Origin: an uncultured Gemmataceae bacterium
GTDB taxonomy: Bacteria; Planctomycetota; Planctomycetia; Gemmatales; Gemmataceae
Reading direction: 5' to 3'
Assembly: GCA_963750165.1 (NCBI GenBank)
Contig: CAVVPN010000011.1
Span: 2,112,001 to 2,176,000 of the forward strand
DNA length: 64,000 nt
The notes under the pieces were generated by a model, which was given only the letters and a program-made list of their open reading frames with translations, was not told the origin of the DNA and ran no database searches. Made by a program: the position numbers and the translations under genes. Shown piece by piece: positions 24,275 to 46,923 of this stretch. Position 1 is the stretch's first letter; each line of letters opens with the position of its first letter.

Positions 24275-24288
24275 GAGGGCCAACCGCC

Positions 24289-24342
24289 CTAATTTTTTTT
24301 CGCCGCCCGCAGTCGGTCGCGGTGGACGCGGGCCACGTCCCA
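24289..24342 (-). pseudogene. Displaced original 3' end of the TPR gene (WDVARVHRDRLRAAKKN*)
   Basis: Continues HYMWDVARV of the gene at 32643-33497 across the duplicated core. Confidence 0.85.
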
Positions 24343-24606
24343 TGATTATCGTAATACGTTGCTCCGCTTGCTTACCGTGACGTATCGGGTGGCCTGACTC
24401 CCGGCCCGCCCCGCCCACAATGCCCTGGCGGGGCATTGTGGGCCATTCTAGGGGGGTATCTGGGCGGGCGGCAACGGATTGCCCTGAGCCGCGTAAAATG
24501 AATGCAACGGGACGGCCGGAGTAGCTACCGGCTCGGCTCGCCCGGTCGGACGTGCAGCATCCTCTCACGCCGGTCGGGCGAGCGCTTCCCGCCTAGAGGA
24601 TGCACC

Positions 24607-25206
24607 ATGTTCGATGACCTTCCTCCCGTCGATGGACACGTCACCATCAGGATCGAACAGCCGCGCCTCCAAGTCCGCCAAAAGTTGATGGAAGCCTTGG
24701 CGCGGGAGCGGATCATCCTGGAACTCTGGGGGCCGCTAGTGCCGAACGAATTCGATTTTGGCGCGACGACGCGCGACCTGTGGGAGTTGTGGTGCGCCGA
24801 GGTAGGGGAACTGAGAGCGCCCCCGCCGAGGCCGACCCCGAGGAACTACCAGGAGACGGCCGACGCGCTTGATCTATTCCAACGCGCAGTTGATGCGCTG
24901 CCCGACTCAACGCCGCCAACACCGCCCCTTGCCCCTCGGCTAACCCTCGACCGTGATACCCTTACCGTCACACTCGACGGCGAGTCATACACCCTCGAAG
25001 ACCCGACCACCTTCCTGCTTTACGCGGCGGTCGTTGAAGCCGAACAACCCCCCATCACTGCGGACACCATTCGCGGCAAGGTCAAGGGGCTGAACGGCAG
25101 CAAGGCGGTCGTGAAGCGGATAGCCTCCCTCCCCGATTCCCTGCGGCAGATCATCAAGAGCGCCCCCGGCCGCGGTTACTGGTTCCAGCTCCCACCGTTG
25201 TCATGA
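24607..25206 (+). CDS. Hypothetical protein with possible C-terminal winged helix
   Basis: LTLDRDTLTVTLDG...IIKSAPGRGYWF resembles an OmpR-like wing. Confidence 0.65.
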   Translation: MFDDLPPVDGHVTIRIEQPRLQVRQKLMEALARERIILELWGPLVPNEFDFGATTRDLWELWCAEVGELRAPPPRPTPRNYQETADALDLFQRAVDALPDSTPPTPPLAPRLTLDRDTLTVTLDGESYTLEDPTTFLLYAAVVEAEQPPITADTIRGKVKGLNGSKAVVKRIASLPDSLRQIIKSAPGRGYWFQLPPLS

Positions 25207-25318
25207 AAAAAAAGTTCCCAAGTAGGCCCCAAGTAGGCCCTAAGTGGGCCGTTGCACGAATCCCCATTTTTCGGCAAAATGCCTCACGTTGACAACCCAT
25301 TGTCACCGGGAGGCATCC

Positions 25319-25570
25319 ATGTCCACCACGACCACGCATATCCGCATCGAGCCTGACGGCATCTATGACGATCTGGCGCTGTACCAGGCGCTGGGCATCA
25401 GCACGGCGACACTGGCGCGCTCCCGCAGCGACGGCAGCTTGCGATACACGCGCAAAGGGAACCGCACCCTGTACCTGGGGCGCTGGGTGTTGGCGTGGTT
25501 GACTGCCGGCGTCGATGACCTGCCCGACGAGGACCGCCAGACGGTTGCCGCGAACGCTGCTGAGAAGTGA
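25319..25570 (+). CDS. Small HTH, excisionase/AlpA-like DNA-binding protein
   Basis: GGAGG RBS; LGISTATLARSRSDGSLRYTRKGNRTLY. Confidence 0.7.
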   Translation: MSTTTTHIRIEPDGIYDDLALYQALGISTATLARSRSDGSLRYTRKGNRTLYLGRWVLAWLTAGVDDLPDEDRQTVAANAAEK

Positions 25571-25638
25571 AAACGGCAACCGTGCTGGGGTCACGTCCGG
25601 CACGGTTGCCTCAATCCGAAAGCACAGGGTACACAACC

Positions 25639-25959
25639 ATGATAACGCATCCTCCCCGCCCCGGCGACGGCCAGCCGCAATCGCGCTTCGCCGCGAAGAT
25701 AGCGGCCCTCAACGCTCTCGACCTGCCCCACCCCGACACTGGCAAGCCGTGTCCGCCCGTCCCACGCCCATTTCGGTTGCCCTTTGGCCGCTACCGAGGA
25801 CTTCCGCTCTCCCAGATACCGGCGGACTACCTGCTGTGGGTGTTGCGGGTGGTCAAGTTGTCCAGGGGTCTGCGTGCCGCCGTGTCCGACGAGTTGGCCT
25901 GTCGGGATATGTTCCCGCCCCTGCCGCCCGACACCCGTGTCGTCGGGAAGGGGGGCTGA
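25639..25959 (+). CDS. DUF3820-like small protein
   Basis: LPFGRYRGLPLSQIPADYLLWVL; paralog at 36748. Confidence 0.7.
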   Translation: MITHPPRPGDGQPQSRFAAKIAALNALDLPHPDTGKPCPPVPRPFRLPFGRYRGLPLSQIPADYLLWVLRVVKLSRGLRAAVSDELACRDMFPPLPPDTRVVGKGG

Positions 25960-25963
25960 CACT

Positions 25964-27445
25964 ATGCCTAAGAGTCCTAATAGCCGGTACGAAGTCGATC
26001 CGCTGCTGAACGGCCAGCACAAGCCCCCTGACGCCCCTCCCACGGAATCGCTCGGTGGCATAGCCCGCGCCTGGCTAAAGTCCAACGAACTGAACCGCCC
26101 CGATGAGGTAGAGATCGGGGCGGGGGTCGAGTACACGGACGACCCTCGTGACGAAACGGCCAGTTGGGAAGACGTGGCAAAAGTGGTGGACGGTATCAAG
26201 TGGCTCCTGAAGGGGTGGGTTCCCTACGGGATGCTGAGCGGCATCATCGCGGAACCCAAGGCGGGCAAGTCGGCCTGGGTGCTGTGGAACCTGGTCCGGC
26301 CCCTGATTACCGCCGAAGTTTGGTTCACGGGCCAGCGTCCCTTCGCGGAACCGCGGGACGTGTTGTGGATTGACACGGAGGGGAGCATCGGCCTGAACCT
26401 GGAGCGGATGAAGCAGTGGGGGCTGCCCCTTCCGCGGGTCAAGGTGCCGTTCCCCGACGACCCCTTCCGGCGGATCGACCTGAACGACAGTGGGCATGTG
26501 CAGCGCATCGGCGACGTGATCTGCAAGTATAAGACGCCCCTCGTCGTGGTGGACAGCTACCGCGGCTCGCACGGTAAGGACGAGAACAGCAGCCTCTCCG
26601 GTTCGGCCCTGAGCAACTTAGCTGACATCGTCCAGCGGACCCACGCCGCGGCCCACGTCATCCACCACACGGGCAAACTCGCCGCTGGCACAGAGATCAA
26701 CGCGAACAGCGCGCGCGGCAGCAACGTCTACCTGGCGATGGTGCGTTGCTTGCTCGGCATCGACCGCCCCGACCCGCAGAGCGACTGGCGCCGTGTCCGG
26801 GTTCTCGCCGAGAATTTCGGTGGCGCCCCGATGCCGGTTGGGTTCCTCATCACCGGCAAGGGACTGGAGTTCGGGCCGGCTCCTGAGAAGCCCCAGGAGG
26901 AACGCAAGGAGACGGGCAAGGATCGCGCCGAGCAGTGGTTGCGGGCACGGATGAAACCGGACACCCCTTACCCAGCAGCGACTATCATCGAGGAAGCCGA
27001 AGCCGCTGGCTTCAGTCATACGGGCACTTTGCAGCGCGCTAAAGCGGCATTGAATGTTGAAACGGTCAAGAGCGGGAAGCACCACTATTGGCGACGGCCG
27101 GCACTGCCGGATGAGTCCCCCGAAGGGATGCTCGGTGAGGCCGTCTGCTACACATACGCCTTGACGGACGGCACCGCGATCAAGGTCGGGAAGTCGGAGC
27201 AGAATCCGAAGGATCGCTTGAGCGAGCTACAGACCGGCAATCCCCGAACGCTACGACTGCTGGCCTTCACCCCCAAGCTGACAGAAGCCCAGGTGAAGGA
27301 GCGTTTGGCGAATCATCATCAGCGGGGAGAATGGTTCAACCTGTCTGCCCCGGTCTTGGACGAAATCACTGCTTGGGAGTGGCGCGACGAGGACGAGATC
27401 GCCAGGCTCAAGCAAGGTATCGCCGGAGGCTCCGGTAATACCTAA
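25964..27445 (+). CDS. RepA/RecA-like AAA helicase with C-terminal GIY-YIG (T5orf172-like) domain
   Basis: AEPKAGKS Walker A, LVVVDS Walker B, IHHTGK, ARGS; YTYAL..IKVGKS..PKDRLSELQTGNP..GEWF. Confidence 0.8.
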   Translation: MPKSPNSRYEVDPLLNGQHKPPDAPPTESLGGIARAWLKSNELNRPDEVEIGAGVEYTDDPRDETASWEDVAKVVDGIKWLLKGWVPYGMLSGIIAEPKAGKSAWVLWNLVRPLITAEVWFTGQRPFAEPRDVLWIDTEGSIGLNLERMKQWGLPLPRVKVPFPDDPFRRIDLNDSGHVQRIGDVICKYKTPLVVVDSYRGSHGKDENSSLSGSALSNLADIVQRTHAAAHVIHHTGKLAAGTEINANSARGSNVYLAMVRCLLGIDRPDPQSDWRRVRVLAENFGGAPMPVGFLITGKGLEFGPAPEKPQEERKETGKDRAEQWLRARMKPDTPYPAATIIEEAEAAGFSHTGTLQRAKAALNVETVKSGKHHYWRRPALPDESPEGMLGEAVCYTYALTDGTAIKVGKSEQNPKDRLSELQTGNPRTLRLLAFTPKLTEAQVKERLANHHQRGEWFNLSAPVLDEITAWEWRDEDEIARLKQGIAGGSGNT

Positions 27446-27523
27446 TCCCTTGATACCTTAATATGTTCTATTAAATATATAATAAGTATCATATTAAGAT
27501 ATCATCCTATTAGGTATCAAGGG
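27436..27523. other. AT-rich putative replication origin of element A
   Basis: Very AT-rich tract bounded by 12-bp inverted repeat CCCTTGATACCT (27447)/AGGTATCAAGGG (27512), immediately after the replicase. Confidence 0.6.
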
Positions 27524-27837
27524 GCGGGATGGCTCCCCGTGCCCCAGCTGCTTTCCCGCCGGGAACGGCGGCATGGTATCCTGACTGTGCTGGAAAACGA
27601 TTGACGTTGTAACAATGACAGCAAGGTAGCTCGCCGGTCAGGCCATGCCAGCGTCCGAGACGACCAATCGCAGACGCCAAGAGCGCAAGACTTTCCAGCA
27701 ATCTTGCTGATCGAAGGCACGAAACCAACCGTGCGTAGGGAGCCGCGAAGGAACTGGCCCCGGTGCGCGGAGGGGGGGGTCATAATGCGCGAGAACATGC
27801 CGGGGGGAGGTGGAACGCCCCCTACCTGCGGTCAGGG
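27521..27837. repeat. Conserved non-coding block shared with element B (39470-39790)
   Basis: Co-linear high similarity with small indels; no convincing ORF. Confidence 0.85.
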
Positions 27838-27839
27838 GT

Positions 27840-28420
27840 AAATACGCGGCAGGCCTTATCACCTGCCATCGCTGCTGCTCATTGAGATTGGAACCAACCC
27901 AAAATAAGTACCCCGCGAGGCAGAGGACGACCAGCAGGACGACCAGCAGGAGGATCAGGACGATTACGACAAGTGCGATCATGGACCCGGCCGTGATCCA
28001 TTGCGGGGCATTGCCAAACGGACCTTGGTTGGCGTACCTTCTTGCTCCGCTTGGTCGTCATTGCGCCTGCTCCTGCTGCGTTGTCGATCCCGCCGATTCT
28101 GCCAGTGGTTGGCCCCTTGCATGGGAGAATTTGGGAGCGCACTAGGGTTGTCTTCCTTGACCACGGGGACGAGCGCGACGGGTTCTTCCGGTTTTGGCGT
28201 GCCCCCCGTTGCCACTGGGTTGAACCGAATTGGCCCTAAATCGGGGACGTTTGGAATCATCGCCGGTGGCGCTGTCTTGGCAAGCTGATCGTCCGACAGT
28301 GGAATTGCGGGCGGGACAGTGACGGGTTGGCCGCACGCCCGGCATTTGCTGGAGCGGCCCGCGCAACTTCAGCGGCGCGGAGAGTTGCATTCCACAGCGA
28401 GGACAGGCGAAACGGATCAT
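27840..28420 (-). pseudogene. Zn-ribbon membrane-anchored protein, fragmented
   Basis: MIRFACPRCG...SKCRACGQPVTVP, Pro-rich linker and a TM helix spread over several frames. Confidence 0.5.
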
Positions 28421-29266
28421 GGGTTGTCCCTTTGGTGACGGGAATGCGCCGGCCCGCCGACGCCATGCGTAGCCGATCATTCCCACCGCACCGATGCCGA
28501 GAAGGGTTAGTGAAGAGGGTTCGGGGGTGGACACGATTTGATATTCAAATGCCTGCGTTTGACCGTTGGCGTCGATGTAGTATCCTTCCACCGTGTTTCC
28601 GGAGATGCCGGTTGCTGCCGAATACGTTGATCCGGCAGGGCTGATGTTGAGGTAGGACGAGCCGTTGTAGAGAAAGGCCGACTGGCTTGTTCCGTTGCCA
28701 TTGTCGCTCCACCAGCCGACAACGTTGTTGCCAGAAACCGCAGAGGCAATCGTGTTAAACGAACCAGGGACATATATTGTCGTGAATGTCGAGCCGTTCA
28801 AGAGGAACCCGGTGTAATGGCCGTTACCGGGTTGAGAATTGCCGATTATGTTGTTGCCAGAAACGCCAGTCGTTTCGGTGTAGGTCGCACCCGGTACGTC
28901 GATGGCGGTATAGGTCGATCCGTTTATTGTGTAGAGAAATCCGTGGAAGTTAAGGCTGGCGTCCTCGTAGATGCCGACGATGTTGTTACCGGAGATGCCC
29001 CGCAGGGTCGTACCGGGGACTCCGTTCTGGCTTGGGATTGTCACTGAGCCAGGGTAATTGATCGTCGTGTAGGTCGAACCGTCGTACAGGAATCCTTGCG
29101 TAGTACTGCCGTCTGAGTAGTAGCCGACAACGTTATTGCCATCTGCGGCGGTGGTCTGGGAGCTAACCGAGCCGGGGTAATAGACAAAACCGGCCTTCGC
29201 CTCTCGTGGGCTGCCGACGAGCGCGGCCAACACCGCACAGGCGAAAATCACAAGGCGCACGTTCAT
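28142..29266 (-). CDS. PEP-CTERM surface protein with GISG/GFLY repeats (true end probably near 28450)
   Basis: Signal peptide; TPEPSSLTLLGIGAVGMIGYAWRRR; the ORF runs on into the next gene. Confidence 0.85.
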   Translation of the reverse strand: MNVRLVIFACAVLAALVGSPREAKAGFVYYPGSVSSQTTAADGNNVVGYYSDGSTTQGFLYDGSTYTTINYPGSVTIPSQNGVPGTTLRGISGNNIVGIYEDASLNFHGFLYTINGSTYTAIDVPGATYTETTGVSGNNIIGNSQPGNGHYTGFLLNGSTFTTIYVPGSFNTIASAVSGNNVVGWWSDNGNGTSQSAFLYNGSSYLNISPAGSTYSAATGISGNTVEGYYIDANGQTQAFEYQIVSTPEPSSLTLLGIGAVGMIGYAWRRRAGAFPSPKGQPMIRFACPRCGMQLSAPLKLRGPLQQMPGVRPTRHCPARNSTVGRSACQDSATGDDSKRPRFRANSVQPSGNGGHAKTGRTRRARPRGQGRQP

Positions 29267-29428
29267 GCTGTGTTCTCAGTGGTCCAGGGATGAAGGCGTG
29301 GCGGCTGGCGCTGGGTCAGCCGCACCATCCACCAATGTACACCCTGCGCGGACTCGATGCTAGTATGTCGTTCCGGGAATTTGCGAATCGACAAGCGGCC
29401 GGGGTGGGCAGCCCCGACCGATGCCGTT

Positions 29429-29743
29429 TCATGCGACCGATGCCCCCGCGACCTCCGCGAACGCCAGGACGCGGCGAATGCGGTCGGCGGGTACGTCGTT
29501 GACGCTGTACCACAGCCCTTTCCTCGACCGCCGTAACCAGCGCCGCGGCACGTTCAACTCCAGGACCACCACCTGCTCGACTCGGCCGCCGTGGCGCTTG
29601 ACCGTGTGCAGGGTTGCCCAGCTGGACTTGTTCAGCGAGTGCAGCCATACCACCTTGAGCCGACCCTTGCTCTTGCAACAGAGCAAGCCGCCCTTCAGGA
29701 TGCTGGCCAGATTACGGGCGAGCGTTGCGTGGCGAATCTTCAT
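29429..29743 (-). CDS. Small ADP-ribosyltransferase-fold protein (Tpt1/KptA/DarT-like)
   Basis: RHAT...NLASILKGGL, VWL, VLELNV, WYSVNDVP pattern. Confidence 0.6.
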   Translation of the reverse strand: MKIRHATLARNLASILKGGLLCCKSKGRLKVVWLHSLNKSSWATLHTVKRHGGRVEQVVVLELNVPRRWLRRSRKGLWYSVNDVPADRIRRVLAFAEVAGASVA

Positions 29744-29806
29744 GGCCGGTGCCCTCCTGTAGCAAGCGGGGCGGGGTTGTGGTCCCCCGCCCCGTGGTTG
29801 CGTTGG

Positions 29807-30118
29807 TTAGAGCTTTCCGGCCGCCTGCAACGCCGCGAGTCCCGAGGCGTGCTTGCAGTGTTTCCACTTCAAGAACCCCTTGCACTCGCAACTGTGCCCG
29901 TCCGCGTTCAGGTTGACGTGGTACTCGTCCTCGCTTCCCACCTTCGACACTCGGAACCCGCTGCCGAAGTCGCTGGCCACCTTCGCCACAAGGTAGCGGT
30001 CGAGTTTGCCGTTCTGGCGAATCTCAACCACCCCTGACGAACCCGGCTCGCTTCCGATGGGCAGGGCCAGCTTGATCGTCCGTTGACGCGCCTTGCGGGC
30101 TTTCGTTACCGTAGCCAT
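29807..30118 (-). CDS. SWIM zinc-finger protein
   Basis: YHV...CECKGFLKWKHCKH. Confidence 0.8.
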   Translation of the reverse strand: MATVTKARKARQRTIKLALPIGSEPGSSGVVEIRQNGKLDRYLVAKVASDFGSGFRVSKVGSEDEYHVNLNADGHSCECKGFLKWKHCKHASGLAALQAAGKL

Positions 30119-30319
30119 TGCGATTCCTCTTCTTCAGGAATTGCCACGGGCCGGGGGTGTTGACGCACCCGCCGGCCCAAATTCGTTTCGGACCCGTTTT
30201 GCCTCCCTCTGTTTGGCAGGACGGGAACCAGTCCCCCCTGCCCGTGTCCCGCTCTCTCTCCCGGTTTCCCGGTTCCGAGCGGCAAATTGTCAAAGATCAG
30301 CTTGAAGCCATCTGTAACC

Positions 30320-30402
30320 ATTGTATTCCGCGGTATACCGCAAATCAAGGTTAGTTGGGAAAATATTTTGCGGTTTACCGCGGGATACCGAACCGCTATA
30401 AT
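30320..30402. promoter_or_regulatory. Divergent promoter/operator region of element A
   Basis: Palindromes GCGGTATACCGC (30330) and GCGGTTTACCGC (30370); rightward TTTACC-17-TATAAT; leftward TTGATT-17-TACAAT. Confidence 0.7.
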
Positions 30403-30466
30403 AGGGGTAGCCACGGCGGGCCGTTTGCCCGCATTGGGGGCGGGCCGTGGCGCTGGGGGTTTAACC

Positions 30467-30688
30467 ATGAGAGCAGCAGTGGCAAAGAAAGCTGACGGCA
30501 AGAAGTCCGGCGGGGGTAAGCACAAGGCGCCGCGCCTGATGGTGCCTCTGCCGAAGGACGTTGTTGAAGCCTTCCGCGACTGGTGCGACGAGAACCGGCG
30601 CGTCCTGGGTTGGGAGGTCGCCCACTTGATGAAGCAGTTCCTCAAAGAGCAAGGCCGCTGGACCGAGGAAGAAGGGGGTGCGCAATGA
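30467..30688 (+). CDS. Small, probable ribbon-helix-helix regulator
   Basis: RLMVPLPKDVVEAFRDWCDENRRVLGWEVAHLMKQFL; stop overlaps the integrase start. Confidence 0.6.
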   Translation: MRAAVAKKADGKKSGGGKHKAPRLMVPLPKDVVEAFRDWCDENRRVLGWEVAHLMKQFLKEQGRWTEEEGGAQ

Positions 30689-32703
30689 GTGCCACGAACG
30701 GCAACGAGCTTGATCTGAGCGGCGACGGCGCGGCATACCTGCGCGTCTCTGACGACCAACAGGATACGGTGCGCCAGTACGAATCGCTCCACGCTTTCGA
30801 GGAGCGGCACGGTGTTATCATCTCGAAACAGAACTGGTTCAAGGATGAGGGCTGGGCGCACGACACCGCCGACCACCGCCCCGACTTCCAACGGCTGATG
30901 AAGCTCGCGGAGGCCGGCGCGGTGCGGTGGATCGTCGTTGACCAACTCGACCGCTTCGGCACTAAGAACGCCAAGCAACTCATCACCTACCTGCACCGCT
31001 TGGACGAGGCAGGCTGCAAGCTGTACGACGCAGCGGGCAAGGAGTGGACCGGCGAGGACATTGCCACGATCATCACCGCCGTCGTTGAAGGAGAGAAGTC
31101 GAAAGGTGAGCAGACCAGCAAGTCGTACCGCGCCCTGAGCGGCAAGGTTGCAAGGGCGCGAGCGGGTGAATGGCAGGGCGGCCCGGTGCGCCTGGGGTTG
31201 GACGTGGTGTGCTACCACCGCGAGACGGACGATGAGCAGTGGCGGGTAGTTATGGAGGCTCTGCACAAGCGGCTGAAAGTGTACCCGGACGGCCGCACGG
31301 AGCGCTTCGACGGCCCGAACAACTTCCCCAGGTATCAACCGGCAACGGAAGTGCTGCGCATCGCCCCCAGCAACGACAAGTCCAAATTGGATGCAGCCGA
31401 GAGCGTGTTCAAGCGCTTTGCCACGGAGTCGATCAGCCCAACCACCCTGGCCCACTACCTGAACGGGCTGAGCTTCCGCACGGCCTTCGGCGGCCCCTTC
31501 CAGGGACACCACGTCAGGGCGATGCTGGAAGACCCGGCTTACATCGGGTACTACGCCTACAACCGCCGCCACTTCGGCAAGTTCCACCGCTGGGCGGATG
31601 GGCAGCCCGTCCATGAACTGAACTACGAAGAGAAGCAATCCAGGAACGACAAGGCCGATTGGGTGCAGAGCCGGCGCCTGTTCGACCCGCTGGTAGACCG
31701 TCCAACCTGGGACGCGGTGCAGAAGAAGCTCGAAAAACCGAGACGTGAGACCGCCCCCCGTAGCGCCGCGCTCTACCTTGCCGGGTTGGTGGTGTGTGGT
31801 AACTGCGGGGCGAAGATGATCGCTGGCCGTGGCAGGTCATCGAAAACCGACAGCCAACCGCTCCGGTTCGAGTTCATTTGCGGCGGCTACCACAAGGCCG
31901 TTCGCAACAAGGAGCGACTGGACACCACTTGCCTCCGCAACAGCGTCTTTCAGCACGAACTGGAACCGTACATCGAACGCTGGCTAGATGCGACGGGCAA
32001 GCGACTGGAAGTGCTTACGCAACCCCCCGAAGCCGAGCGCGGACACCTGACGGACAAGCTGCAAGGAGAACTCGTCCTGACCAACACCGCCTTCTGGGAA
32101 AACTACCTGCACATGCTGCGTTGCATCGCTGAGGAAGACCCGCAGAACTGGGCCGCGCTGTGGGAAGGGGTTCCCGAGGCGCAGGGGGTGCCACTCGAAA
32201 AAGTCATTGCCCACTACCGCAGCTGCTTCGACCCGAGCAAGTTGACGGCGGAAATTGAGAATCTGGAGGCCGAGCACACGGCTCTATACCGCCGCTACGC
32301 CGACCTACCGACCCCACGGGCCAGGGAGAAGGCGAAGGCGGAGCTAACCACCCTGGAGGACCGAATCGCCGAACTGGAGCGCCGGCGTGAGGACATCGGC
32401 GCGACTGCGACCGCCCAGTGGGCACAGGTTCTGGACTTGGCGAACGCGGTCAAGGAAGCCCGGAGGGCGATGGAGAGCGAGGACGGCGAGCGTGCTTCAC
32501 GGCGGAAGGCGGAAGCCCTCCGGGCCATCATCCAGCGGATCGAGTGTACCTTTGAGCCGACGGACCAGAGAGGCGGCGGCCACGGCAAGAAGAACGCACG
32601 GTTTGCCAAGGTGACGATCTATCCGATTGTGGGCGATGCCGCTCACTTTCGCATCGAAGCCGATAGCGTATTACGGGCAACCCGGGCCACGTCCCACATG
32701 TAA
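30685..32703 (+). CDS. Large serine recombinase (integrase of element A)
   Basis: AYLRVS catalytic Ser, RPDFQRLM, DQLDRFG, LAGLVVCGNCG Zn ribbon, coiled coil. Confidence 0.93.
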   Translation: MSATNGNELDLSGDGAAYLRVSDDQQDTVRQYESLHAFEERHGVIISKQNWFKDEGWAHDTADHRPDFQRLMKLAEAGAVRWIVVDQLDRFGTKNAKQLITYLHRLDEAGCKLYDAAGKEWTGEDIATIITAVVEGEKSKGEQTSKSYRALSGKVARARAGEWQGGPVRLGLDVVCYHRETDDEQWRVVMEALHKRLKVYPDGRTERFDGPNNFPRYQPATEVLRIAPSNDKSKLDAAESVFKRFATESISPTTLAHYLNGLSFRTAFGGPFQGHHVRAMLEDPAYIGYYAYNRRHFGKFHRWADGQPVHELNYEEKQSRNDKADWVQSRRLFDPLVDRPTWDAVQKKLEKPRRETAPRSAALYLAGLVVCGNCGAKMIAGRGRSSKTDSQPLRFEFICGGYHKAVRNKERLDTTCLRNSVFQHELEPYIERWLDATGKRLEVLTQPPEAERGHLTDKLQGELVLTNTAFWENYLHMLRCIAEEDPQNWAALWEGVPEAQGVPLEKVIAHYRSCFDPSKLTAEIENLEAEHTALYRRYADLPTPRAREKAKAELTTLEDRIAELERRREDIGATATAQWAQVLDLANAVKEARRAMESEDGERASRRKAEALRAIIQRIECTFEPTDQRGGGHGKKNARFAKVTIYPIVGDAAHFRIEADSVLRATRATSHM

Positions 32704-33497: not shown

Positions 33498-33616
33498 GAC
33501 GACCTCCCCGGGAAGGTGCCGGCGGCCGTTGCCCGTGCGCAGACAACGGCCGTCGGCCTTTTCGGATGAGGTTAGGGAAACGGACGCCAGCCGGACAGGC
33601 GGCGGCGCGCGAGCAG

Positions 33617-36213: not shown

Positions 36214-36283
36214 ACCTCCCGGAACCTGCTAAAACCTCTCTGTGCCGCGATCCTCCCCATGAATTTGTGAGGAGGACGCGGCT

Positions 36284-39082: not shown

Positions 39083-39130
39083 TACCGACGGTTGAGGAAG
39101 TGGAAATGGCCGAGGCTGAGCTGCGATCAA

Positions 39131-39311
39131 CCTAACAGCCTAACTTAGCTAACAAGGGGTGCCTTTGCCTAACTAACTAACAGGGGGTATATACCCCTGG
39201 CACATGAGGGATGAGTTACCTAACAACCTAACTTGTCAAACAACCTAACAAGATCACTGGTGACGTTCTCCCTGAAGGGGATGGGGTATGTCCCCCTTGT
39301 TAGTTAGTTAG
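39131..39311. other. Iteron-rich putative origin of element B
   Basis: About nine CTAAC and three inverted GTTAG; IR CTAACTAACTAACAGGGGG/CCCCCTTGTTAGTTAGTTAG. Confidence 0.7.
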
Positions 39312-39469
39312 ACAATTCGCTCCGGAGGACTACCACCGGGCACCGCGACGGTTGCGCGAGTTGATGGGGCAATGCTCATGCAACCTTGCTGGCCTGTTGA
39401 GGAAGTAACCGTAACACCCTGACCTGGGCCGGGCGGTCAGAGACGAGTACCTTAAAGCAACAACGAAAA

Positions 39470-39790
39470 GGGGCGGACTGGCCCCCATGCCCCAACCGCT
39501 TTCCCGCCGGGAGCGGCGGTATGGTATCCTAACTGGTGCTGGAAACCGATTGACGTTGTGAGAATGACAGCAAGGTAGCTCGCCGGTCAGGTCATGCCAG
39601 CGTCCAGGACGACCAATCCCGGACGCCAAGAGTGCAAGACTTTCCAGCAATCTTGCGGATTGAAGGCGTGAAACCAACCGTGCGTAGGGAGCCGCGCGAA
39701 GGAACTAGCCCCCGGTGCGCCCGAGGGGGGTCACAATACGCGGGAACATGCCGGGGGGAGAGTGGAACGCCCCCTACCCTGCGGTCAGGG
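39470..39790. repeat. Conserved non-coding block shared with element A
   Basis: Co-linear with 27521-27837. Confidence 0.85.
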
Positions 39791-39820
39791 CACGAGGACG
39801 GCCAGCTCGTCGTCGCCAAG

Positions 39821-41649
39821 TTACTTGCTGGGCGAGAAAACCAACACCTCCACGGTATTCAGGAAGGGCACGGTGCCTCCTCCGCCGATGGCATAGATGC
39901 GACCATCGCGACCTGTAGTCGCCGCCAGTTGACCACGCACGGTAGGCATGTTTGCGACGGGAGTCCACTTGTTGGTGCTCGGGTCGTAGGCTTCCACAGG
40001 GTTGAGATTTTCGCCTTCGGGATGTCCTCGAATGGCGTAGATTCGGCCATCCGGACCCATTGCGGCTGCAAGCGCATTACGCGCTGTTGGCATGTTGGCA
40101 ACGGTAGTCCAAGTGTTAGTTTCGGTGTCATAGGCTTCCACAGTTTTGAGACGCTTGCTGTTGATCCCGCCGATAGCAAAGATGCGACCATCCGGCCCCG
40201 TTGCGGCTGCGAGGTAGACACGGACTGTGGGCATACTTGCGACAGTAGTCCAGGTGTTTGTGCTCGGGTCGTAGGCTTCCACGGTATTAAGAGGCACCCC
40301 GCGTTGACCAGTTCCGCCAATGGCGTAGATTCGACCATCGGGGCCGGTGACGGCTGCCAGCCCATGACGCGCGGTCGGCATGGGGGCGACCGCGATCCAC
40401 ATGTTGGTACTTGGGTTGTAGGCTTCTACGATATTCGCGCCGCCAACGCCACCGATGGCATAGATGAGATTATTCGGACCTAATGTGGCGGCCAGGTGAT
40501 TGCGAGCGGTGGGCATGGGGGCCGCTTTGGTCCACTTGTTGGTATTTGGGTAGTAAACCTCGACGGTGTCGAGGCGGCCGCTGGCGTCCTCTCCGCCGAA
40601 GGCGTAGATGCGACCATCCGCCCCCGTTACCGCAGCCAGCAAGATACGCGCGGTAGGCATGTTGGCCAGACTTTTCCAGGTGGCCGGCTGAATTCCTTCA
40701 GTTTTTTTATCAAGGATGTTTTTTATCGATTCCTTGCCCGGCGCAATCTTGTCCGTTCCCACAGCGGGCTTGTCCTTCTTCCTGTCCGGGTCAGTGTCCT
40801 TCGGCCTGTCGTCGCCGCGCGGACCCTTCGCGGCCACCGGGGGGCCGTCCGGCGTCTTCGGCTCCGACCTATTGCGGACGACGAGGACGACCACGACCAC
40901 CAGCGCGACGGCCGCGGCGCCCCCGCCAGCCAGACCCATCCCGGTACGCCCGGACGCGACGGCCGGCGCCTCTCCAGGATCGGCTCCTCTTCGGGGGGAA
41001 GGGGCACGGAGAGGATCGTGCCCCGGGGAGGCGGTGGAATCTGGATGCGCTGCCCGCACTTGGGGCAGTTTAGTTTCTGGCCTGCAATCCGAGCGGGCAC
41101 CGTCATCGCGGTCTTGCACACCGGACACGCGAAACGAATCGGAGTCGCCCCCGATGCTCGCGGCCCCGCCGGCATCGGCGACAGCGGTCTGTCGGCGACC
41201 GGCGGCGAGTTCAATTCGCCCGGCTAGAAGCGCGGCAGGTCGGGCGGCAAAAACGGCAGCAGATTCTCGGCGCTGCTCAAGCGCAGGTCGGGCGGCACGG
41301 TTCGGCCTTCGGGGTCGGTCGGCCGGTACAGGGTATGGCGAACCTGGACCTGCACCTGGATCAAGTAGGTAGTCAACTTCCGCTTGACCGCGGCAGGCTG
41401 TCCGGCGGCCTCATCCTGGATGGCGGCCTGCACCGCTGCCTCGACCCGCTCCGCCGTGGCATGGGCCAGCGCCTGGAGTTCTTCGCGCGGGTCCGCTTCA
41501 GCCGGATTCTGCTTCTTCCACCGCTCCCAGACATCGGCACCGAACTCAACAACCTCGATCAGCGCACCGCCACCGGGTACGAGAGCGACGAGGAATTTGC
41601 CGATGCGGTTGACGGCAGCCTCGACACAACAATTCAGCAGGGGGAACAT
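39821..41649 (-). pseudogene. Zn-ribbon/TM/Kelch-repeat protein with in-frame TAG (41224) and frameshift (~40920)
   Basis: Six MPTAR..LAA..GPDGRIYAIGG Kelch repeats; FACPVC..CPKC; ORFs 41224-41649 and 40723-41214 share a frame across one TAG. Confidence 0.7.
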
Positions 41650-41762
41650 GGGTCACTCCGCGCAGGCTCGAGGGCGCGTTCTCCGTGATCCGAGGAAGTA
41701 GGTGCCTCACGAGGTACACACCGATTGAAAGCTGCGGATGGCGCATAGGCCGCTAAGTTGCC

Positions 41763-42869
41763 TCAAGATGACGCTGCTGCTGGTTTGTGGCGATAGCGCC
41801 GACGCCATGCGTAGCCGATCATTCCCACCGCACCGATGCCGAGAAGGGTTAGTGAAGAGGGTTCAGGGGTGGCGGCTGCGAACTGGTATTCAAAGGCTTG
41901 TGTTTGACCGTTGGTGTCGATGTAGTATCCGACGGCTGTGCTGCCGTCTATCGCCGCCAACCCGGTGGTGCCTGTCGTGCCGGGGTAGTCGAGGGTGATG
42001 TAGGTTGAACCATCGTAGATAAAGCCATGCGTTCCGGTCGCATCCTGGAAAGAGCCAACCACATCGTTGCCGGATACAGCGGCCGGCTGGGTCGAAGCTG
42101 CGCCGGGAACGCTGATTGTGGAGTAAGTCGAGCCGTTGTACGAAAACCCTTGGAAGTTGCCGCTGCTGTCTTTGTAGTAGCCAACTACTGTGCTCCCTGA
42201 AATGCCATTGGCTTCGGTATAGTTCGATCCGGGGAAATTGAGAACGCTATAGGACGAGCCATCGTAAAGAAAGCCGTGAATGTCACCTAACGCGCCGCTG
42301 CCGGCGTCGCTCACGAATCCCACGACCTTGTTGCCAGAGATTGCGGTCGCAATCGTATCAAACTCCCCTGGGACGGCGAGCGTCGTGAATGCCCCTGAAT
42401 TGTAAATAAATCCGCTGTATTGGCCAGTGCCAGGTTGAGAATTGCCGATAATGTTGTTGCCGGAGATGCCGGTAGTTTCGGTGTAGGTCGCACCCGGTAC
42501 GTCGATGGCGGTATAGGTCGATCCGTTTATTGTGTAGAGAAATCCGTGGAAGTTAAGGCTGGCGTCCTCGTAAATACCGACGATGTTGTTACCGGAGACG
42601 CCCCGCAGGGTCGTACCTGGGATTTGCGTTTGGTTTGGGAGTGTCACTGAGCCAGGGTAATTGATCGTCGTGTAGGTCGAGCCGTTGTACAAGAATCCTT
42701 GCGTAGTGCTACCGTTGGAATAATAGCCGACCACGTTGTTGCCAGAGACGGATGTCGCTTGCGAACTGACCGATCCCGGTGGATTGATTTGGATGAAACC
42801 AGCAGATGCCTCGGTGGCTTGCAAAAGAAGCGCGAAGGCCATAGCAAAGGCGAAAGGTGTATCTTTCAT
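41763..42869 (-). CDS. PEP-CTERM surface protein with GISG/GFLY repeats
   Basis: Signal peptide; TPEPSSLTLLGIGAVGMIGYAWRRR identical to the element A copy. Confidence 0.9.
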   Translation of the reverse strand: MKDTPFAFAMAFALLLQATEASAGFIQINPPGSVSSQATSVSGNNVVGYYSNGSTTQGFLYNGSTYTTINYPGSVTLPNQTQIPGTTLRGVSGNNIVGIYEDASLNFHGFLYTINGSTYTAIDVPGATYTETTGISGNNIIGNSQPGTGQYSGFIYNSGAFTTLAVPGEFDTIATAISGNKVVGFVSDAGSGALGDIHGFLYDGSSYSVLNFPGSNYTEANGISGSTVVGYYKDSSGNFQGFSYNGSTYSTISVPGAASTQPAAVSGNDVVGSFQDATGTHGFIYDGSTYITLDYPGTTGTTGLAAIDGSTAVGYYIDTNGQTQAFEYQFAAATPEPSSLTLLGIGAVGMIGYAWRRRYRHKPAAASS

Positions 42870-43252
42870 GGTGCTACCAAAAAAGTAGGAGCGACGAACC
42901 AAAGCCGCTCCTCAAACCCGACCAAGGGTGCTACAGAACGGACCCTGGCCGCCGCCCCTTTCGGGGCGTGGCTTGGTCCGCTTCTGTAGCTTCAAGAGCG
43001 TTTCCGCTCAGGTTGGTCGTTTGAAGAAGCGAAGCCATGCTCAACGCATGGTTCAAATTGTCAACGGGCCTTGTCTGGCCCGGTCAATGCTCTGGCACTC
43101 TCCGTCGTCCGAGGATGCATGAACAGCAGTTGGCCCAGCGCCAACCGCACCACCTGGGAGTCTACACGAGGCGCGCGACCGACGCTAGATGCCTGAACGG
43201 GAATTTGCGAATCGACAAGCGGCCGGGGTGGGCAGCCCCGACCGATGCCGTC

Positions 43253-43567
43253 TTACGCGACCGATGCCCCCGCGACCTCCGCGAACGCCAGGACGCGGCG
43301 AATGCGGTTGGCGGGTACGTCGTTGACGCTGTACCACAGCCCTTTCCTCGACCGCCGCAACCAGCGCCGCGGCACGTTCAACTCCAGGACCACCACCTGC
43401 TCGACTCGACCGCCGTGGCGCTTGACCGTGTGCAGGGTTGCCCAGCTGGACTTGTTCAGCGAGTGCAGCCATACCACCTTGAGCCTACCCTTGCTCTTGC
43501 AACAGAGCAAGCCGCCCTTCAGGATGCTGGCCAGATTGCGGGCGAGCGTTGCGTGGCGAATCTTCAT
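43253..43567 (-). CDS. Small ADP-ribosyltransferase-fold protein (copy 2)
   Basis: One amino-acid difference (D/N) from 29429-29743. Confidence 0.6.
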   Translation of the reverse strand: MKIRHATLARNLASILKGGLLCCKSKGRLKVVWLHSLNKSSWATLHTVKRHGGRVEQVVVLELNVPRRWLRRSRKGLWYSVNDVPANRIRRVLAFAEVAGASVA

Positions 43568-43630
43568 GGCCGGTGCCCTCCTGTAGCAAGCGGGGCGGGG
43601 TTGTGGTCCCCCGCCCCGTGGTTGCGTTGG

Positions 43631-43943
43631 TTAGAGATTTCCGGCCGCCTGCAACGCCGCGAGTCCCGAGGCGTGCTTGCAGTGTTTCCACTTCAAGAAC
43701 CCCTTGCACTCGCAACTGTGCCCGTCCGCAGTTCAGGTTGACGTGGTACTCGTCCTCGCTTCCCACCTTCGACACTCGGAAACCGCTGCCGAAGTCGCTG
43801 GCCACCTTCGCCACAAGGTAGCGGTCGAGTTTGCCGTTCTGGCGAATCTCAACCACCCCTGACGAACCCGGCTCGCTTCCGATGGGCAGGGCCAGCTTGA
43901 TCGTCCGTTGACGCGCCTTGCGGGTTTTCGTTACCGTAGCCAT
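43631..43943 (-). CDS. SWIM zinc-finger protein (copy 2; +1 frameshift near 43730)
   Basis: Near-identical to 29807-30118 apart from one extra base. Confidence 0.75.
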
Positions 43944-44138
43944 TGCGATTCCTCTTCTTCAGGAATTGCCACGGGCCGGGGTGTTACAAGCACCGCCGGC
44001 CCACTTTCGTTTCGGACCCGTTTGCCTCCTCTCCGTTTGGCGTGGCGGGAACCAGTCCCCCGCGCCCGTGTCCCGCTCTCCCTCCCGGTTCCCCGGTTCC
44101 GAGCGGCATCTTGTCAAAGAACTGGGCTTGATTGCCTG

Positions 44139-44537
44139 TTACTGCTTCTTCTTGCCGCCCTTAGCCGCCGGCTTGCGCGTCAGGCCCAGCGCCTCCAACT
44201 CGTCGTCGCTGAACGCCGCCAACTTGGCGGCGACCGCCTCCTTGGTGACCGGTGCCGCCTTGGTGCCGGTGCTGGCGCTGTAGCCGTCGAGCTGGGCGGC
44301 TCTGCTGATGGCGGGGTCGTATCCGATGGCCAGGATCCACCCCTTCACCTCACCCTTAATCGCGATCTCGAACGCGCGAGTGTTCTTGGGCGGGTTGGCG
44401 GGTTTGGCTGCCAGCGCCTCGTCGCGCGTGGCAAACAGCTGCTTGGGCAGCTCATCCCGAGTGGTGGCGGTGGTCTCGGGGGCCGTGGCCTGGTCCGTTG
44501 CCGTTGTGTTCGTGGTCGTGTTCGTCGTGTCGGTCAT
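44139..44537 (-). CDS. Hypothetical protein with basic C-terminus
   Basis: AAGGGG RBS; first gene of the leftward operon; absent from element A. Confidence 0.7.
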   Translation of the reverse strand: MTDTTNTTTNTTATDQATAPETTATTRDELPKQLFATRDEALAAKPANPPKNTRAFEIAIKGEVKGWILAIGYDPAISRAAQLDGYSASTGTKAAPVTKEAVAAKLAAFSDDELEALGLTRKPAAKGGKKKQ

Positions 44538-44617
44538 GGTCGTTCCCCTTTTCGTAAACCGTCGGGGCCGGGCCGGGCGGGAAACCCCCGCCCCGTTGCC
44601 CGCGCCCATCTACCCTA

Positions 44618-44722
44618 ATGATACCGAAACTTCGGTAGTGAGTCAAGTCCAGTAGTACCGAAAATTCGGTATTCCGCAACCCGAATACCGGACTTGAATT
44701 ACTACCGAAGTTTTGGTACAAT
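44618..44722. promoter_or_regulatory. Divergent promoters with three operators TACCGAA-NN-TT(C/T)GGTA
   Basis: Operators at 44622, 44656, 44703; rightward TTGAAT-17-TACAAT; leftward TTGACT-17-TATCAT. Confidence 0.8.
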
Positions 44723-44746
44723 GGGCGGCGAAAGGAGGGAAACCCC

Positions 44747-45001
44747 ATGACCACGTTCGGCGAGAAGTTGAGGGAACTACGGGACGCGGCCGGGATGACG
44801 CAGACGGCGCTGTCAGAGGCCGCGGGTGTACCCATCGGCACAGTGCGGGACTACGAGCAGGGGGTGCGCGACCCGCTGCTCTCTAACGCCCAGCGCCTGG
44901 CGAAGGCGCTGGGCGTCAGTCTCGACGTGTTCCCCCCGACGGTGCCGCGACCGAAGAAGGGGAGAGGTAAGGCGAGGGGCAAGAAGGGGGGTGGGAAATG
45001 A
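44747..45001 (+). CDS. XRE-family HTH regulator
   Basis: FGEKLRELRDAAGMTQTALSEAAGVPIGTVRDYEQGVRDP. Confidence 0.9.
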   Translation: MTTFGEKLRELRDAAGMTQTALSEAAGVPIGTVRDYEQGVRDPLLSNAQRLAKALGVSLDVFPPTVPRPKKGRGKARGKKGGGK

Positions 45002-45156
45002 TTAGCGCGAAGGACGAGTTGCACCACCTGGCGGACTGCATGTCTGAGGAGGAGTGCGAGCGGGCATTTGAGCTACTGCGGCAGGCCGGGATGACCGGAC
45101 CCCAAGACGATGACGAGCCTGACGAGCCAACCACTGTGGATGAGGACAAGCAATGA
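44998..45156 (+). CDS. 52-aa acidic hypothetical protein
   Basis: ATGA overlaps with both neighbours; MISAKDELHHLADCMSEEECERAFELL. Confidence 0.55.
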   Translation: MISAKDELHHLADCMSEEECERAFELLRQAGMTGPQDDDEPDEPTTVDEDKQ

Positions 45157-46923
45157 GCACCACGAACGGCAACGGCAAGCTGGACCTCGACCGGGCTTGC
45201 CTCTACCTGCGCAGGTCCACCGATGACCAAGTGCAGTCCATCGACCGCCAGCGCGGCCAGACCACCGCCTACGCCGCCGCCAGGGGCTACCGCGTCATCC
45301 GGGAATACACCGATGAGGGGATCGCCGGCGACGTGTTCGACCGCCGCCCCGACTTCCAGGAGATGCTCGCCGCCGCCGGGCGGGGCGAGTTCGAGGTCAT
45401 CGTCGTCGATGAGCCATCTCGCCTGTCTCGGCAGAACCCCATTGATCTAATCGAGAAGGTCATCGCCCCCTTGCGGCGTTCGCGCGTCCGCATCGACACC
45501 GCCTCCAAGGGGGTGCTCGATTACGAGTCGCTGGCCGGCATTATCATGATGACGGTCCACGCCCACAAGTCGGAGGACGAGTCGCGCGACCTGTCCCGCC
45601 GCAGCCTGGGCGGCATCACACGGCGGGCGCAAGCCGGCCTCTGGTTCGGCTGGATACCGCCCTTCGGTCTGCGGATCGTCCGCGAGACGGACCCCGCCTC
45701 CGCCAAGGTGACGGCGCGAAAGTGCATCCACGGACCCGATGAGGAGGTGAACGCCGTCCGCTTCATCTTCGACGCCGTAGCCAACCGGGGCTGGTCGCTG
45801 CGGCAAGTGTGCCGTGAACTGGAGGCCCGCGGCGTCAAACCGCCCGCCGGCAACGGCCGCGGGGCGAACAAGGCCGGGGGCAGCTGGAACCCCGGCACCG
45901 TGCGGAAGATTCTCACCAACCGCAAGTACGTCGGCGACCTGACATACAACGTCACCCACCAGGGGAAGTATTCTTTCCTCTCCGGCGGTCGCGTCGAGGC
46001 GCACGGCGTCATCAACCGCCGTGTCAGCCGCAACCCCGATGAGGACATTGTTGTCGTGCCTGTCCCGGACCTCATCCTGCCGCTGATCGACCGCGACACC
46101 TTCACGCGCGCCGGCGTCGCCCTGTCCCTGGCGCAGAAGCGGACCACCCCCGGCACCGCCGCCCGCTACCTGTTCACTCACCTGCTTGTCTGCGGTGACT
46201 GCGGCTCGTTCATGCGCGGCCAGCCCGACCACGGCCACAAGGGGTACATCTGCTCCCGGTACAAGGAGTATGGCAAGTGCAGCCGCAACACCGTGGGTGA
46301 AGAACACCTCAAGCGGTCACTGCTGACGGCCCTGCTCGACGACATCCTCAACCCGAAGCGGCTCGACGAGGTAGAGGCGGAAGTGGAACGCCGTATCAAG
46401 TCGGAGCGCTGTTCCGGCGAGGCGGATCGTATCCGGCGCCAGGTCGCCGCCCTCGATAAGGACATCGCGCAGGGCAACATCAACCTCGCGCTTGCCCGAA
46501 GACCGTCACCCCGGCGTCATCAACCAGTTACGTCTGTGGGAGGGCGAGCGAGCCGGGCTGCTGTCCCGCCTGAACGACTTGGAGCACGGAGCCGAGCACG
46601 AAAAGGCGGTGCTGGCCGAAGCGCGCCGGCAGCTGTGGCGTCTGCGGGAGGCACTGGAGGGGGACGACGAGGAGGCGCAGGCGACCGTCTTGCGTGAGGT
46701 GGTCACGAAGGTTGAAGTCCGCTTCACCCACGAGCGGACCCACGGCAAGCGCAGCCCCACGGGCGAGGGCCGCGTCCTCAGCCGGGCGGCCGGGGCGGTG
46801 CTGTACGTTCGGCCCGGCCTTGGTTTATCCCACTTGTTTACTTCGGATTCCAGAAATCCGGCTCGCGGCGGTGCATCAGGCCGTGCCAGTAACTGCCGGT
46901 CGGCGTCGCGATGTCCTGGCTGA
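45153..46923 (+). CDS. Large serine recombinase (integrase of element B); frameshift near 46492
   Basis: LYLRRST, SIDRQ, RPDFQEML, SRLSR, LLVCGDCG; continues in ORF 46492-46923. Confidence 0.9.

Follow-up and report, generated by a model that had tools for sequence, protein, structure and literature searches.

Two Adjacent Serine-Recombinase Islands of a Mosaic Element Family in a Gemmataceae Genome

Introduction

How does an integrative element that encodes an integrase, a regulator, and a replicase, but no recognizable packaging gene, spread from cell to cell? This question is raised by a stretch of 64 kb (hereafter the window, G000:C11:2112001-2176000) in the 9.6-Mb genome (about 65% GC, 12 contigs) of an uncultured Gemmataceae bacterium, which carries two elements, A and B. 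Our analysis indicates that A and B are distinct integrative elements, each site-specific and each lodged in a host gene of its own, with 2.5 kb between them. We consider it very likely that both are self-replicating islands, integrated by large serine recombinases (LSRs), and members of a real family. A preliminary description of the window, made from the letters alone, had placed the pair at 24329-46851, and both end points proved exact: the 14-bp repeat bordering A begins at 24329, and the crossover core of B ends at 46851.

Mobile elements of planctomycetes have hardly been described, and our literature search, going by its listings, turned up no work on satellites or on small integrative elements in these bacteria. 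The base-exact borders, target genes, and implied recombination sites of A and B make excision and integration readily testable at the bench. The most novel items are a covarying leader RNA that has no Rfam match and a very conserved stand-alone NAD-lobe protein, and the family core to which they belong is common in soil metagenomes. If helper dependence is true, phage satellites would be extended to a new phylum and would gain a new regulatory RNA.

Results and Discussion

Borders, Target Genes, and Integrases

Proteins of the window were scanned against Pfam, PHROGs, and NCBIfam, and the DNA of A and B was compared by blastn. The closest database relatives of the marker proteins are from metagenome-assembled genomes (MAGs) of Gemmataceae, Gemmatales, and Planctomycetota. 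No empty site was found by synteny; because the relatives have only a TPR gene in common with this region, the borders were derived from split or displaced reading frames instead. The 64-kb window contains no tRNA gene, so neither element has a tRNA target. The proposal that the family targets protein-coding genes held for both elements, with A in the end of the TPR gene and B splitting a gene that is one open reading frame (ORF) in relatives. The features of A that bear on its integration are as follows.

24289-24342, minus strand: attL of A, consisting of the 14-bp core (24329-24342) and the original 3' end of the TPR gene, now displaced
24350-24358: left-end arm of the predicted attP of A, complementary to 32667-32675 at 9/9 positions
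30685-32703, plus strand: LSR A, 672 aa, whole, identified by Pfam and phrog_95 (E 4e-53), with an RVSDDQQ motif
32643-33497, minus strand: TPR gene, the target of A, its last 13 codons supplied by the element
32667-32696: attR of A, consisting of an arm (32667-32675) and the core (32683-32696)

Element A occupies 24329-32696 and is flanked by an exact 14-bp direct repeat. The 14-mer, CGGGCCACGTCCCA, has exactly two copies in the window, at 24329-24342 and 32683-32696, where none is expected, and it falls within the TPR gene at the codons for WDVAR. Past the repeat, the TPR frame reads VARNTLSASMRK, coded by element A DNA, and the displaced end at attL translates as WDVARVHRDRLRAAKKN. The TPR ends of relatives, such as ...MWDVARVHRDLLKAKMQ, are nearer to the displaced end than to the element-supplied one. 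The repeat positions, the element-read end, and the displaced end together give a length of 8,354 bp and an insertion point 13 codons before the TPR stop, at which A supplies a replacement for the end of the gene without destroying it. Among the TPR genes of relatives, 2 of 6 contain the uninterrupted 14-mer exactly and a third contains it with one mismatch; these are natural empty sites of A. When the ends of A are joined, the predicted attP has perfect 9-nt inverted arms, each 7 nt from the core. A short core with inverted arms is the usual shape of a serine-integrase attP. LSR A is a single intact ORF with PF00239 (Resolvase, E 7.5e-16), Recombinase, and Zn_ribbon_recom domains; because this ORF runs across attR, its final codons would change upon excision.

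Element B is bordered as follows.

34902-35167, minus strand: C part of the B target, with the attL core TTCC (35164-35167); joined to the N part in relatives
35168-35180: left-end arm of the predicted attP of B, complementary to 46833-46846 at 12/14 aligned positions
45153-46923, plus strand: LSR B, identified by Pfam; frameshifted near 46492, with the second frame crossing attR
46833-46851: attR of B, consisting of an arm (46833-46846) and the core TTCC (46848-46851)
46838-47146, minus strand: N part of the B target; contiguous with the C part in relatives

Element B (35164-46851, about 11.68 kb) has the common TTCC and imperfect inverted arms at its ends. The minus-strand ORF that forms the N part of its target terminates ...HRREPDFWNPK*, and the C part, read from 35165 down to 34902, starts NSKYWFRRVGKHP... 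Each half is present in 23 of 40 relatives, and in relatives where both were located, the halves are adjacent within a single ORF. An undivided example, at G009:C5:180995-181543, reads ...REPDFGNSKYWFRR... These alignments indicate that B disrupts its conserved target gene, whose protein of about 190 aa matches no Pfam family. LSR B carries PF00239 (E 6e-23), Recombinase, and Zn_ribbon_recom domains and an RRSTDDQ motif. It is 29% identical to LSR A, and no orthologue above 38% identity was found in 200 genomes of the order.

Gene Content and Mosaic Structure

The genes and sites inside A, apart from those given above, are listed first.

24607-25206, plus strand: gene 1, 199 aa from ATG in an ORF that opens at 24502; no family match
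25217-25250: tandem repeat, 11 nt x 3.1 (TRF)
25319-25570, plus strand: small excisionase/AlpA-like gene; HTH_17 E 0.0045, 17.7 bits, under the cut-off of 27
25567-25959, plus strand: QSregVF_b (DUF3820)-like gene, sharing 76% identity with the C-terminus of the B gene at 36472-36978
25784-27445, plus strand: replicase; AAA_25 E 4e-16, MUG113/T5orf172, PHROG primase/helicase families
27446-27514: AT-rich origin-like tract, 69 nt, 23% GC, with inverted repeats on either side
27515-27840: conserved noncoding block of about 320 nt, 89% identical to 39464-39793
28142-29266, minus strand: PEP-CTERM cargo gene; PF07589 at aa 246-271 of 374
29429-29743, minus strand: 104-aa gene, mini-ART (ADP-ribosyltransferase); Tpt1/KptA NAD-lobe fold
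29807-30118, minus strand: SWIM gene, intact; CxC...CxH visible, PF04434 E 0.013
30113-30217, minus strand: leader RNA; covariance model R1, 94.9 bits; covariation; no Rfam match
30320-30402: back-to-back promoter-like sites with palindromic operator-like repeats
30467-30688, plus strand: RHH (CopG-like) regulator; RHH_5 E 6.8e-5, 23 bits, cut-off 26

Those inside B are as follows.

35686-36213, plus strand: gene 1; no family match; best Atlas match 0.87, to an unnamed viral cluster (a lead only)
36198-36238: tandem repeat, 20 nt x 2
36284-36475, plus strand: small excisionase-like gene by position and size; no family match
36472-36978, plus strand: QSregVF_b (DUF3820)-like gene; PF12843 E 1.1e-5, above cut-off
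36968-39082, plus strand: Prim-Pol replicase, 704 aa; PF09250 E 1.3e-9, phrog_1156
39120-39320: iteron-rich origin-like tract, with 12 of the 34 CTAAC words of the window in 200 nt and inverted repeat I2
39464-39793: conserved noncoding block, partner of A 27515-27840
39821-41128, minus strand: Kelch-repeat cargo gene, B only; Kelch_1 E 2e-69
41224-41649, minus strand: gene without family match, B only; paralogue 36% identical at C11:579362
41763-42902, minus strand: PEP-CTERM cargo gene; PF07589 at the C-terminus, 69% identical to that of A over 239 aa
43253-43567, minus strand: 104-aa mini-ART gene, 99% identical to that of A
43631-43943, minus strand: SWIM gene, broken by a 1-nt insertion; two frames in tblastn
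43938-44041, minus strand: leader RNA; covariance model R1, 108 bits
44139-44609, minus strand: gene between switch and leader, B only; homologues 68% identical in the same position in 4 loci
44622-44718: inverted repeat I5, operator-like, 5' of the XRE gene; 33-nt arms, 88% complementary
44747-45001, plus strand: XRE-type regulator; HTH_3 E 1.6e-16

PF12843 (QSregVF_b) in these lists is the former DUF3820. The two elements share five blocks of DNA, 87-96% identical by blastn.

Block 1: 25778-25943 / 36785-36950, 87% identical
Block 2 (noncoding): 27519-27837 / 39468-39790, 89%
Block 3: 28455-28585 / 41797-41930, 90%
Block 4: 28806-29141 / 42409-42744, 90%
Block 5: 29346-30296 / 43171-44120, 95.8% over 956 columns

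The ORF listing and the three profile scans bear out the same gene sets in A and B, with the replicase, origin, regulator, and integrase swapped between the shared blocks, as the preliminary description had it. Its nearly identical block is block 5 at the extent given here, and its conserved noncoding block, PEP-CTERM genes, divergent promoter-like sites, and phased repeats were all recovered, the last as short tandem repeats between gene 1 and the excisionase-like gene. The common module order stands, but B has three genes beyond the set of A (39821-41128, 41224-41649, and 44139-44609). Gene 1 was found where it had been placed, but the helix-turn-helix label given to it was not sustained, with no family match and an AlphaFold2 (AF2) model of the A copy at pLDDT 64. 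Likewise, the proposed Zn-ribbon membrane protein has a Zn-ribbon-like start but is not one clean ORF in A, where the PEP-CTERM frame runs through it. In the stretch 28142-28453 of A, this start reads MIRFACPRCG..., and the arrangement may reflect either a deletion that produced a fusion or damage to a cargo gene.

Gene 1 of A has 7 homologues and is 30% identical to a gene that adjoins a tyrosine integrase in another locus (L027); its model has no fold match in BFVD. In Atlas, gene 1 of either element falls only in unnamed, partly viral clusters. The true start of replicase A is probably after 25959. The stop of the RHH gene of A overlaps the start of the integrase gene (ATGA).

The noncoding block of about 320 nt has only two copies in the genome, behind unrelated replicases and origins. 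No copy was found in the other loci fetched, or in viral contigs by a 44-letter pattern. It was rejected as a gene on account of five frame-breaking indel events. Read as an RNA, it shows 4 compensatory pairs on the plus strand and 2 on the minus strand, from two sequences only. Candidate roles for the block are a structured RNA, a packaging site, and an origin of transfer (oriT).

Leader RNA

Islands that share only about 45% identity in their SWIM proteins are 87-90% identical in the stretch 5' of the SWIM gene. This stretch corresponds to a structured leader of about 105 nt. A covariance model built from 26 copies gave 44 matches in 99 sources, all of them upstream of the operon and on the same strand. 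In the 15-pair structure, 92% of cells are paired, versus 74% in shuffles, and double changes occur in 14 of the 15 pairs. The covariation score, from an alignment that was fitted to part of the tested structure, is 0.425 versus 0.121 for shuffled alignments; it was reached by 0 of 500 shuffles, and slid controls gave at most 0.112. The leader comprises a long hairpin followed by a second hairpin just before the ATG, the 3' strand of which is the ribosome-binding site.

Neither copy in the window has a match in Rfam 15 at E<=1; elsewhere in the region, Rfam gives a sub-threshold sbcD match inside the XRE gene. The genome contains 9 copies of the leader. None was found in a phylum sample of 150 genomes under strict filters, with 25 candidates scored per genome. 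The ORF at 30024-30293 in A and the ORFs of about 170 aa that precede the 104-aa gene elsewhere were considered as genes and rejected as N-terminal run-ons over the leader.

104-aa Protein and SWIM Gene

The leader precedes the SWIM gene and the gene for a basic protein of 104 aa; all three fall within block 5 and run leftward from the paired promoter-like sites. The AF2 model of the 104-aa protein (pLDDT 85) has 10 Foldseek matches in the PDB at E<=0.001, all of them Tpt1/KptA, with TM about 0.6 and 22-32% identity; a weaker match is to the DUF952-type protein CC0527. Tpt1/KptA, an RNA 2'-phosphotransferase, is a two-lobe enzyme of about 180 aa with an Arg-His-Arg-Arg tetrad. The 104-aa protein resembles Tpt1/KptA (PDB 9ld*, 8tg*, and 1wfx) in the fold of the NAD lobe (Foldseek E 2e-4), but it is half the size, lacks the RNA-binding lobe, and matches only the C-terminal lobe. 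Against the 180-aa KptA profile, it aligns with residues 96-146, at E 0.11 only. Since the fold matches are to Tpt1/KptA and the profile alignment is limited to residues 96-146, the model indicates a stand-alone NAD lobe and not a Tpt1. The earlier label of ART-like thus holds at the level of the fold.

Homologues of the 104-aa protein form 424 protein clusters, nearly all of about 104 aa, and those among the 120 listed are at least 63% identical. Homologues of the SWIM protein occur in 41 loci. PF04434 scores 15.5 bits on SWIM A (E 0.013) versus a cut-off of 19.6, and the CxCxnCxH motif is visible.

Wider Family

This genome contains 9 matches to the 104-aa gene, which places the core at 7 sites beyond A and B. 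The gene is present in 1 of 30 relatives and was found in 10 MAG loci, 80 metagenome loci, and one IMG/VR contig, the metagenomes being from soil; a search with marker proteins, which the preliminary description had suggested, therefore recovers the core well outside the window. The conserved core consists of the leader RNA, the SWIM gene, and the 104-aa gene, divergent from an XRE or RHH regulator and an integrase. With five shared blocks set among unrelated modules and a core that recurs elsewhere in the genome, in MAGs, and in metagenomes, the proposal of a mosaic family is supported.

The context was scanned in 25 longer loci with the 104-aa gene (6 from this genome, 9 from MAGs, and 10 from metagenomes or viral contigs). 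Tyrosine integrases were found in 9 and an LSR in one (L085, 36% identical to LSR B). Hence, although A and B do use LSRs, as first described, the wider family mostly has tyrosine integrases, and the serine integrases of A and B appear as the exception in a family that swaps its integrases. Replicases of the Toprim, Prim-Pol, DUF3987, D5_N, or AAA_25 type were found in 8 of the loci. The cargo behind the 104-aa gene, often defense-like in relatives, includes DUF6573, DUF6908, an SNF2-PLD helicase with an Eco57I-type methylase, SIR2, TIR-AAA_35, EAD1-trypsin, a Fic protein, and a double GTPase.

Two further arrangements were noted. In four MAG and metagenome loci (L038, L084, L086, and L087), an RHH regulator 61-62% identical to that of A is followed by a gene for a Lon-protease C-terminal domain, with no integrase there, and a homologue of B 44139-44609 takes the place of the SWIM gene before the leader. 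At G000:C9:127336-128044 and G000:C12:1316511-1318141, the contigs end inside core copies (leader, SWIM, and 104-aa gene); such repeats seem to interrupt the assembly.

Links to Phages and Conjugation

The preliminary description had recognized no capsid, terminase, relaxase, or type IV secretion system (T4SS) gene, and this was borne out: A and B contain no capsid, terminase, portal, tail, lysis, relaxase, or T4SS family by the three scans, and their sole "virion" PHROG match is the Kelch repeat domain. Relatives of the core do occur with phage genes. The IMG/VR contig, of 11 kb (L064), carries a DUF3987 primase-helicase, two small terminase (terS) genes (Terminase_2, E 9e-33, and Terminase_4, E 2e-23), the core with an XRE gene, leader, SWIM gene, and 104-aa gene, and a tyrosine integrase; no large terminase (TerL) or capsid gene was found in its 11 kb.

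In contig C2 (34.9 kb, L032/L033), a switch of leader, XRE gene, and tyrosine integrase lies at 33100-34904, with primase-helicase, head protease, TerS-like, and major head genes leftward of it and no recognized tail genes. The leader copy is weaker there (28 bits), and its long hairpin is plainly present. At 16061-17729, the same contig has an XRE gene and an LSR that shares 33-51% identity with LSR B across two frames. The C2 element might represent a small phage or a satellite that forms a capsid.

At C11:2269225, a set of SWIM gene, XRE gene, and leader adjoins a head-tail adaptor gene. The surrounding locus (L031, G000:C11:2259000-2270500), about 93 kb past the window, is prophage-like, with a Mu gp36-like adaptor, and ends in the XRE/leader/SWIM set. 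The genome also has a capsid and TerL gene pair at C3:2489700-2494584, which is a possible helper.

Comparison with Known Systems

Excerpts of PMC10085698 describe five core components for phage-inducible chromosomal islands (PICIs), with three of the five giving a "Type C" that is called ambiguous, and state that SatelliteFinder treats tyrosine and serine recombinases as exchangeable (PMC10085698). A and B resemble PICIs and the staphylococcal pathogenicity islands (SaPIs) in having an integrase, divergent regulators, an excisionase-like gene, a primase-replicase with an adjacent origin, cargo, and a size of 8-12 kb. They differ in the lack of terS and a capsid-morphogenesis gene, in the serine recombinase, and in the planctomycete host, and appear to have 3 of the 5 core components. 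Both carry an integrase and a primase-replicase of the kind that PICIs require (AAA_25 in A and Prim-Pol in B). For regulation, where alpA, merR, or stl is looked for, B has an XRE and A an RHH regulator, and HTH_17 is sub-threshold in A with none in B.

PICMIs, the phage-inducible chromosomal minimalist islands of Vibrionaceae, are described, in excerpts of PMC10803314, as having only an integrase along with alpA and a primase, integrating at gene ends next to fis, often with a small gene that overlaps the integrase gene by ATGA, and as having DUF3987/DUF5906 primases and a known helper (PMC10803314). As far as those excerpts go, A and B are similarly small, with an integrase, a small regulator or excisionase-like gene, and a replicase, and without capsid-remodeling genes or terS; A also shares the integration at a gene end and the ATGA overlap of the RHH and integrase genes. 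By the same account, A and B differ in their LSRs, in other replicase families, in other targets (the TPR gene and the gene of about 190 aa), and in the leader/SWIM/mini-ART operon. Satellites with serine recombinases are known, according to excerpts of PMC9618062, from the PICI-like elements (PLEs) of Vibrio cholerae and from module 3 of the virion-encapsidated integrative mobile elements (VEIMEs) (PMC9618062). Judged by those excerpts, A and B resemble PLEs and serine-type VEIMEs in LSR integration, and no shared accessory genes were recognized in a scan that had no PLE-specific profiles.

Features of other classes were searched for in A and B. No match was found in PHROGs or Pfam to the P4-like features (psu-delta-sid operon, epsilon, and alpha primase-helicase). 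The features of capsid-forming PICIs (cf-PICIs), namely capsid, portal, head-tail connectors, and TerL, are absent from A and B and partly present on C2. For integrative conjugative or mobilizable elements, no relaxase, type IV coupling protein (T4CP), or T4SS gene was found in either, an oriT not being recognizable by sequence here. By these features, A and B are not PICIs, PICMIs, P4-like elements, or cf-PICIs, and they would work most like PICMIs or Type-C PICIs.

LSR elements that interrupt genes include SPbeta in spsM, A118 in comK, skin in sigK, and Bxb1 in groEL1. They are like A and B in their insertion into coding genes, short core, and imperfect inverted att arms. They are full phages or excision-only developmental elements, however, whereas A and B are 8-12 kb islands with their own replicases and no structural genes.

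Proposed Life Cycle and Alternatives

The results allow us to propose how such an island might function. The regulator would keep both divergent promoters shut. Upon induction, the recombinase would join attL and attR to release a circle, with the small excisionase-like protein probably acting as the directionality factor. The replicase would copy the circle from the adjacent origin, and helper-phage particles would then carry the circle out of the cell, in the manner of minimalist satellites; this last step is suggested by the lack of capsid, terminase, and conjugation genes in A and B. The complete reading, in which integrative elements of a mosaic family replicate as circles and are carried by a helper phage, is one that we favor tentatively, at somewhat under an even chance. 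Of the claims made in the preliminary description, the mosaic family and the coding-gene targets stand; helper dependence appears plausible from indirect evidence and is the most likely mode of transfer, held with just under even confidence.

Several observations weigh against this reading. Genes were called from an ORF listing and a filter on GC at third codon positions, without a trained gene finder, and the excisionase-like label rests on a sub-threshold HTH_17 match in A and on position and size in B. No terS, capsid-morphogenesis, or other hijack gene was recognized in A or B, where ORFs without a family remain. No DNA common to A or B and the capsid/TerL regions, which might be a cos or pac site, was found by blastn or nhmmer, and terS occurs in just 1 of the 25 scanned family loci. 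The genome has a T4CP-like gene at C1:294786, so mobilization by conjugation is conceivable. The rarity of terS and the T4CP-like gene would fit plasmid-like islands that excise and replicate as helper-free episomes and spread vertically, by conjugative mobilization in trans, by transformation, or in vesicles. So would the gene content of A and B, an integrase, a regulator, and a replicase with no packaging gene, and the 320-nt block by the origin could be an oriT or a copy-control RNA. The elements have no relaxase, though, and relaxases PF03432 and PF03389 and VirB4 PF03135 have no match anywhere in the genome, whereas the XRE/leader switch is common to elements with terS, head, and adaptor genes. 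We regard helper-free spread as possible and rather doubtful.

The state of the genes bears on whether the elements still move. Integrases of relatives match B over 45192-46493 in a first frame and, from 46492 on, in a second; the frame change comes after the zinc ribbon and does not lie in a homopolymer. The SWIM gene of B has gained 1 nt compared with A and with three further copies. The frameshifts of B may be mutations or assembly errors, and B may no longer be mobile by itself. The PEP-CTERM frame of A passes its sorting motif without a stop and continues for about 100 more codons into the Zn-ribbon-like start at 28414. These defects, along with a B target that is still split, would be expected of immobile relics, which entered by LSR integration and have since become passengers, fixed in place and retained by chance or for the sake of their cargo. 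Against this stand a whole LSR A of 672 aa with its catalytic-serine motif, two intact att pairs whose arms pair when the ends are joined, 104-aa genes that are intact and 99% identical, and a 95.8% block that points to recent exchange between A and B. A looks whole, its PEP-CTERM frame excepted, and fixed relics are improbable. Descent from full prophages through decay, with loss of the structural and lysis genes, seems less probable still. The XRE-type switch and the LSR are phage-like, and the capsid-encoding C2 element has the same switch, but the borders are precise, the set of integrase, regulator, replicase, and cargo is compact, and no structural, packaging, or lysis gene or fragment was found in A or B by the three scans. 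Moreover, the small layout recurs in MAG and metagenome relatives (L034, L036, and L085 among them) in which host genes begin within a few kb of the core, and two unrelated replicase and integrase sets in one layout would be hard to obtain by parallel decay.

On the helper-dependent reading, a more speculative role for the core can be considered, although we think it unlikely. The leader, the SWIM protein, and the NAD lobe might form a sensing and counter-defense module of an unrecognized Gemmataceae-type satellite lineage that has capsid-forming relatives. The leader would be a riboswitch-like or protein-controlled translational switch, its last hairpin hiding the ribosome-binding site; the 104-aa protein would bind or consume NAD-derived molecules during helper infection; and the integrase, replicase, and cargo slots would be swapped freely around the core.

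Neighboring Sequences

Three features of the host DNA near the elements were noted. A REP-like palindrome of about 70 nt, with more than 100 copies in the genome and unrelated to A, occurs at 21191-21286 and 24194-24290. An Rfam match of this palindrome to mir-873 (37.5 bits versus a gathering score of 95) was dismissed as chance. Between A and B, the 2.5-kb stretch of host DNA encodes two paralogous small proteins on the minus strand (33617-34075 and 34217-34621), which have an N-terminal membrane helix, a shared C-terminal motif, and no family match. Just left of A, at 22298-23749, lies a ClpX-like AAA+ gene (zf-C4_ClpX and AAA_2, 483 aa), a second copy of which, 74% identical in DNA, is found at C3:603483-604131.

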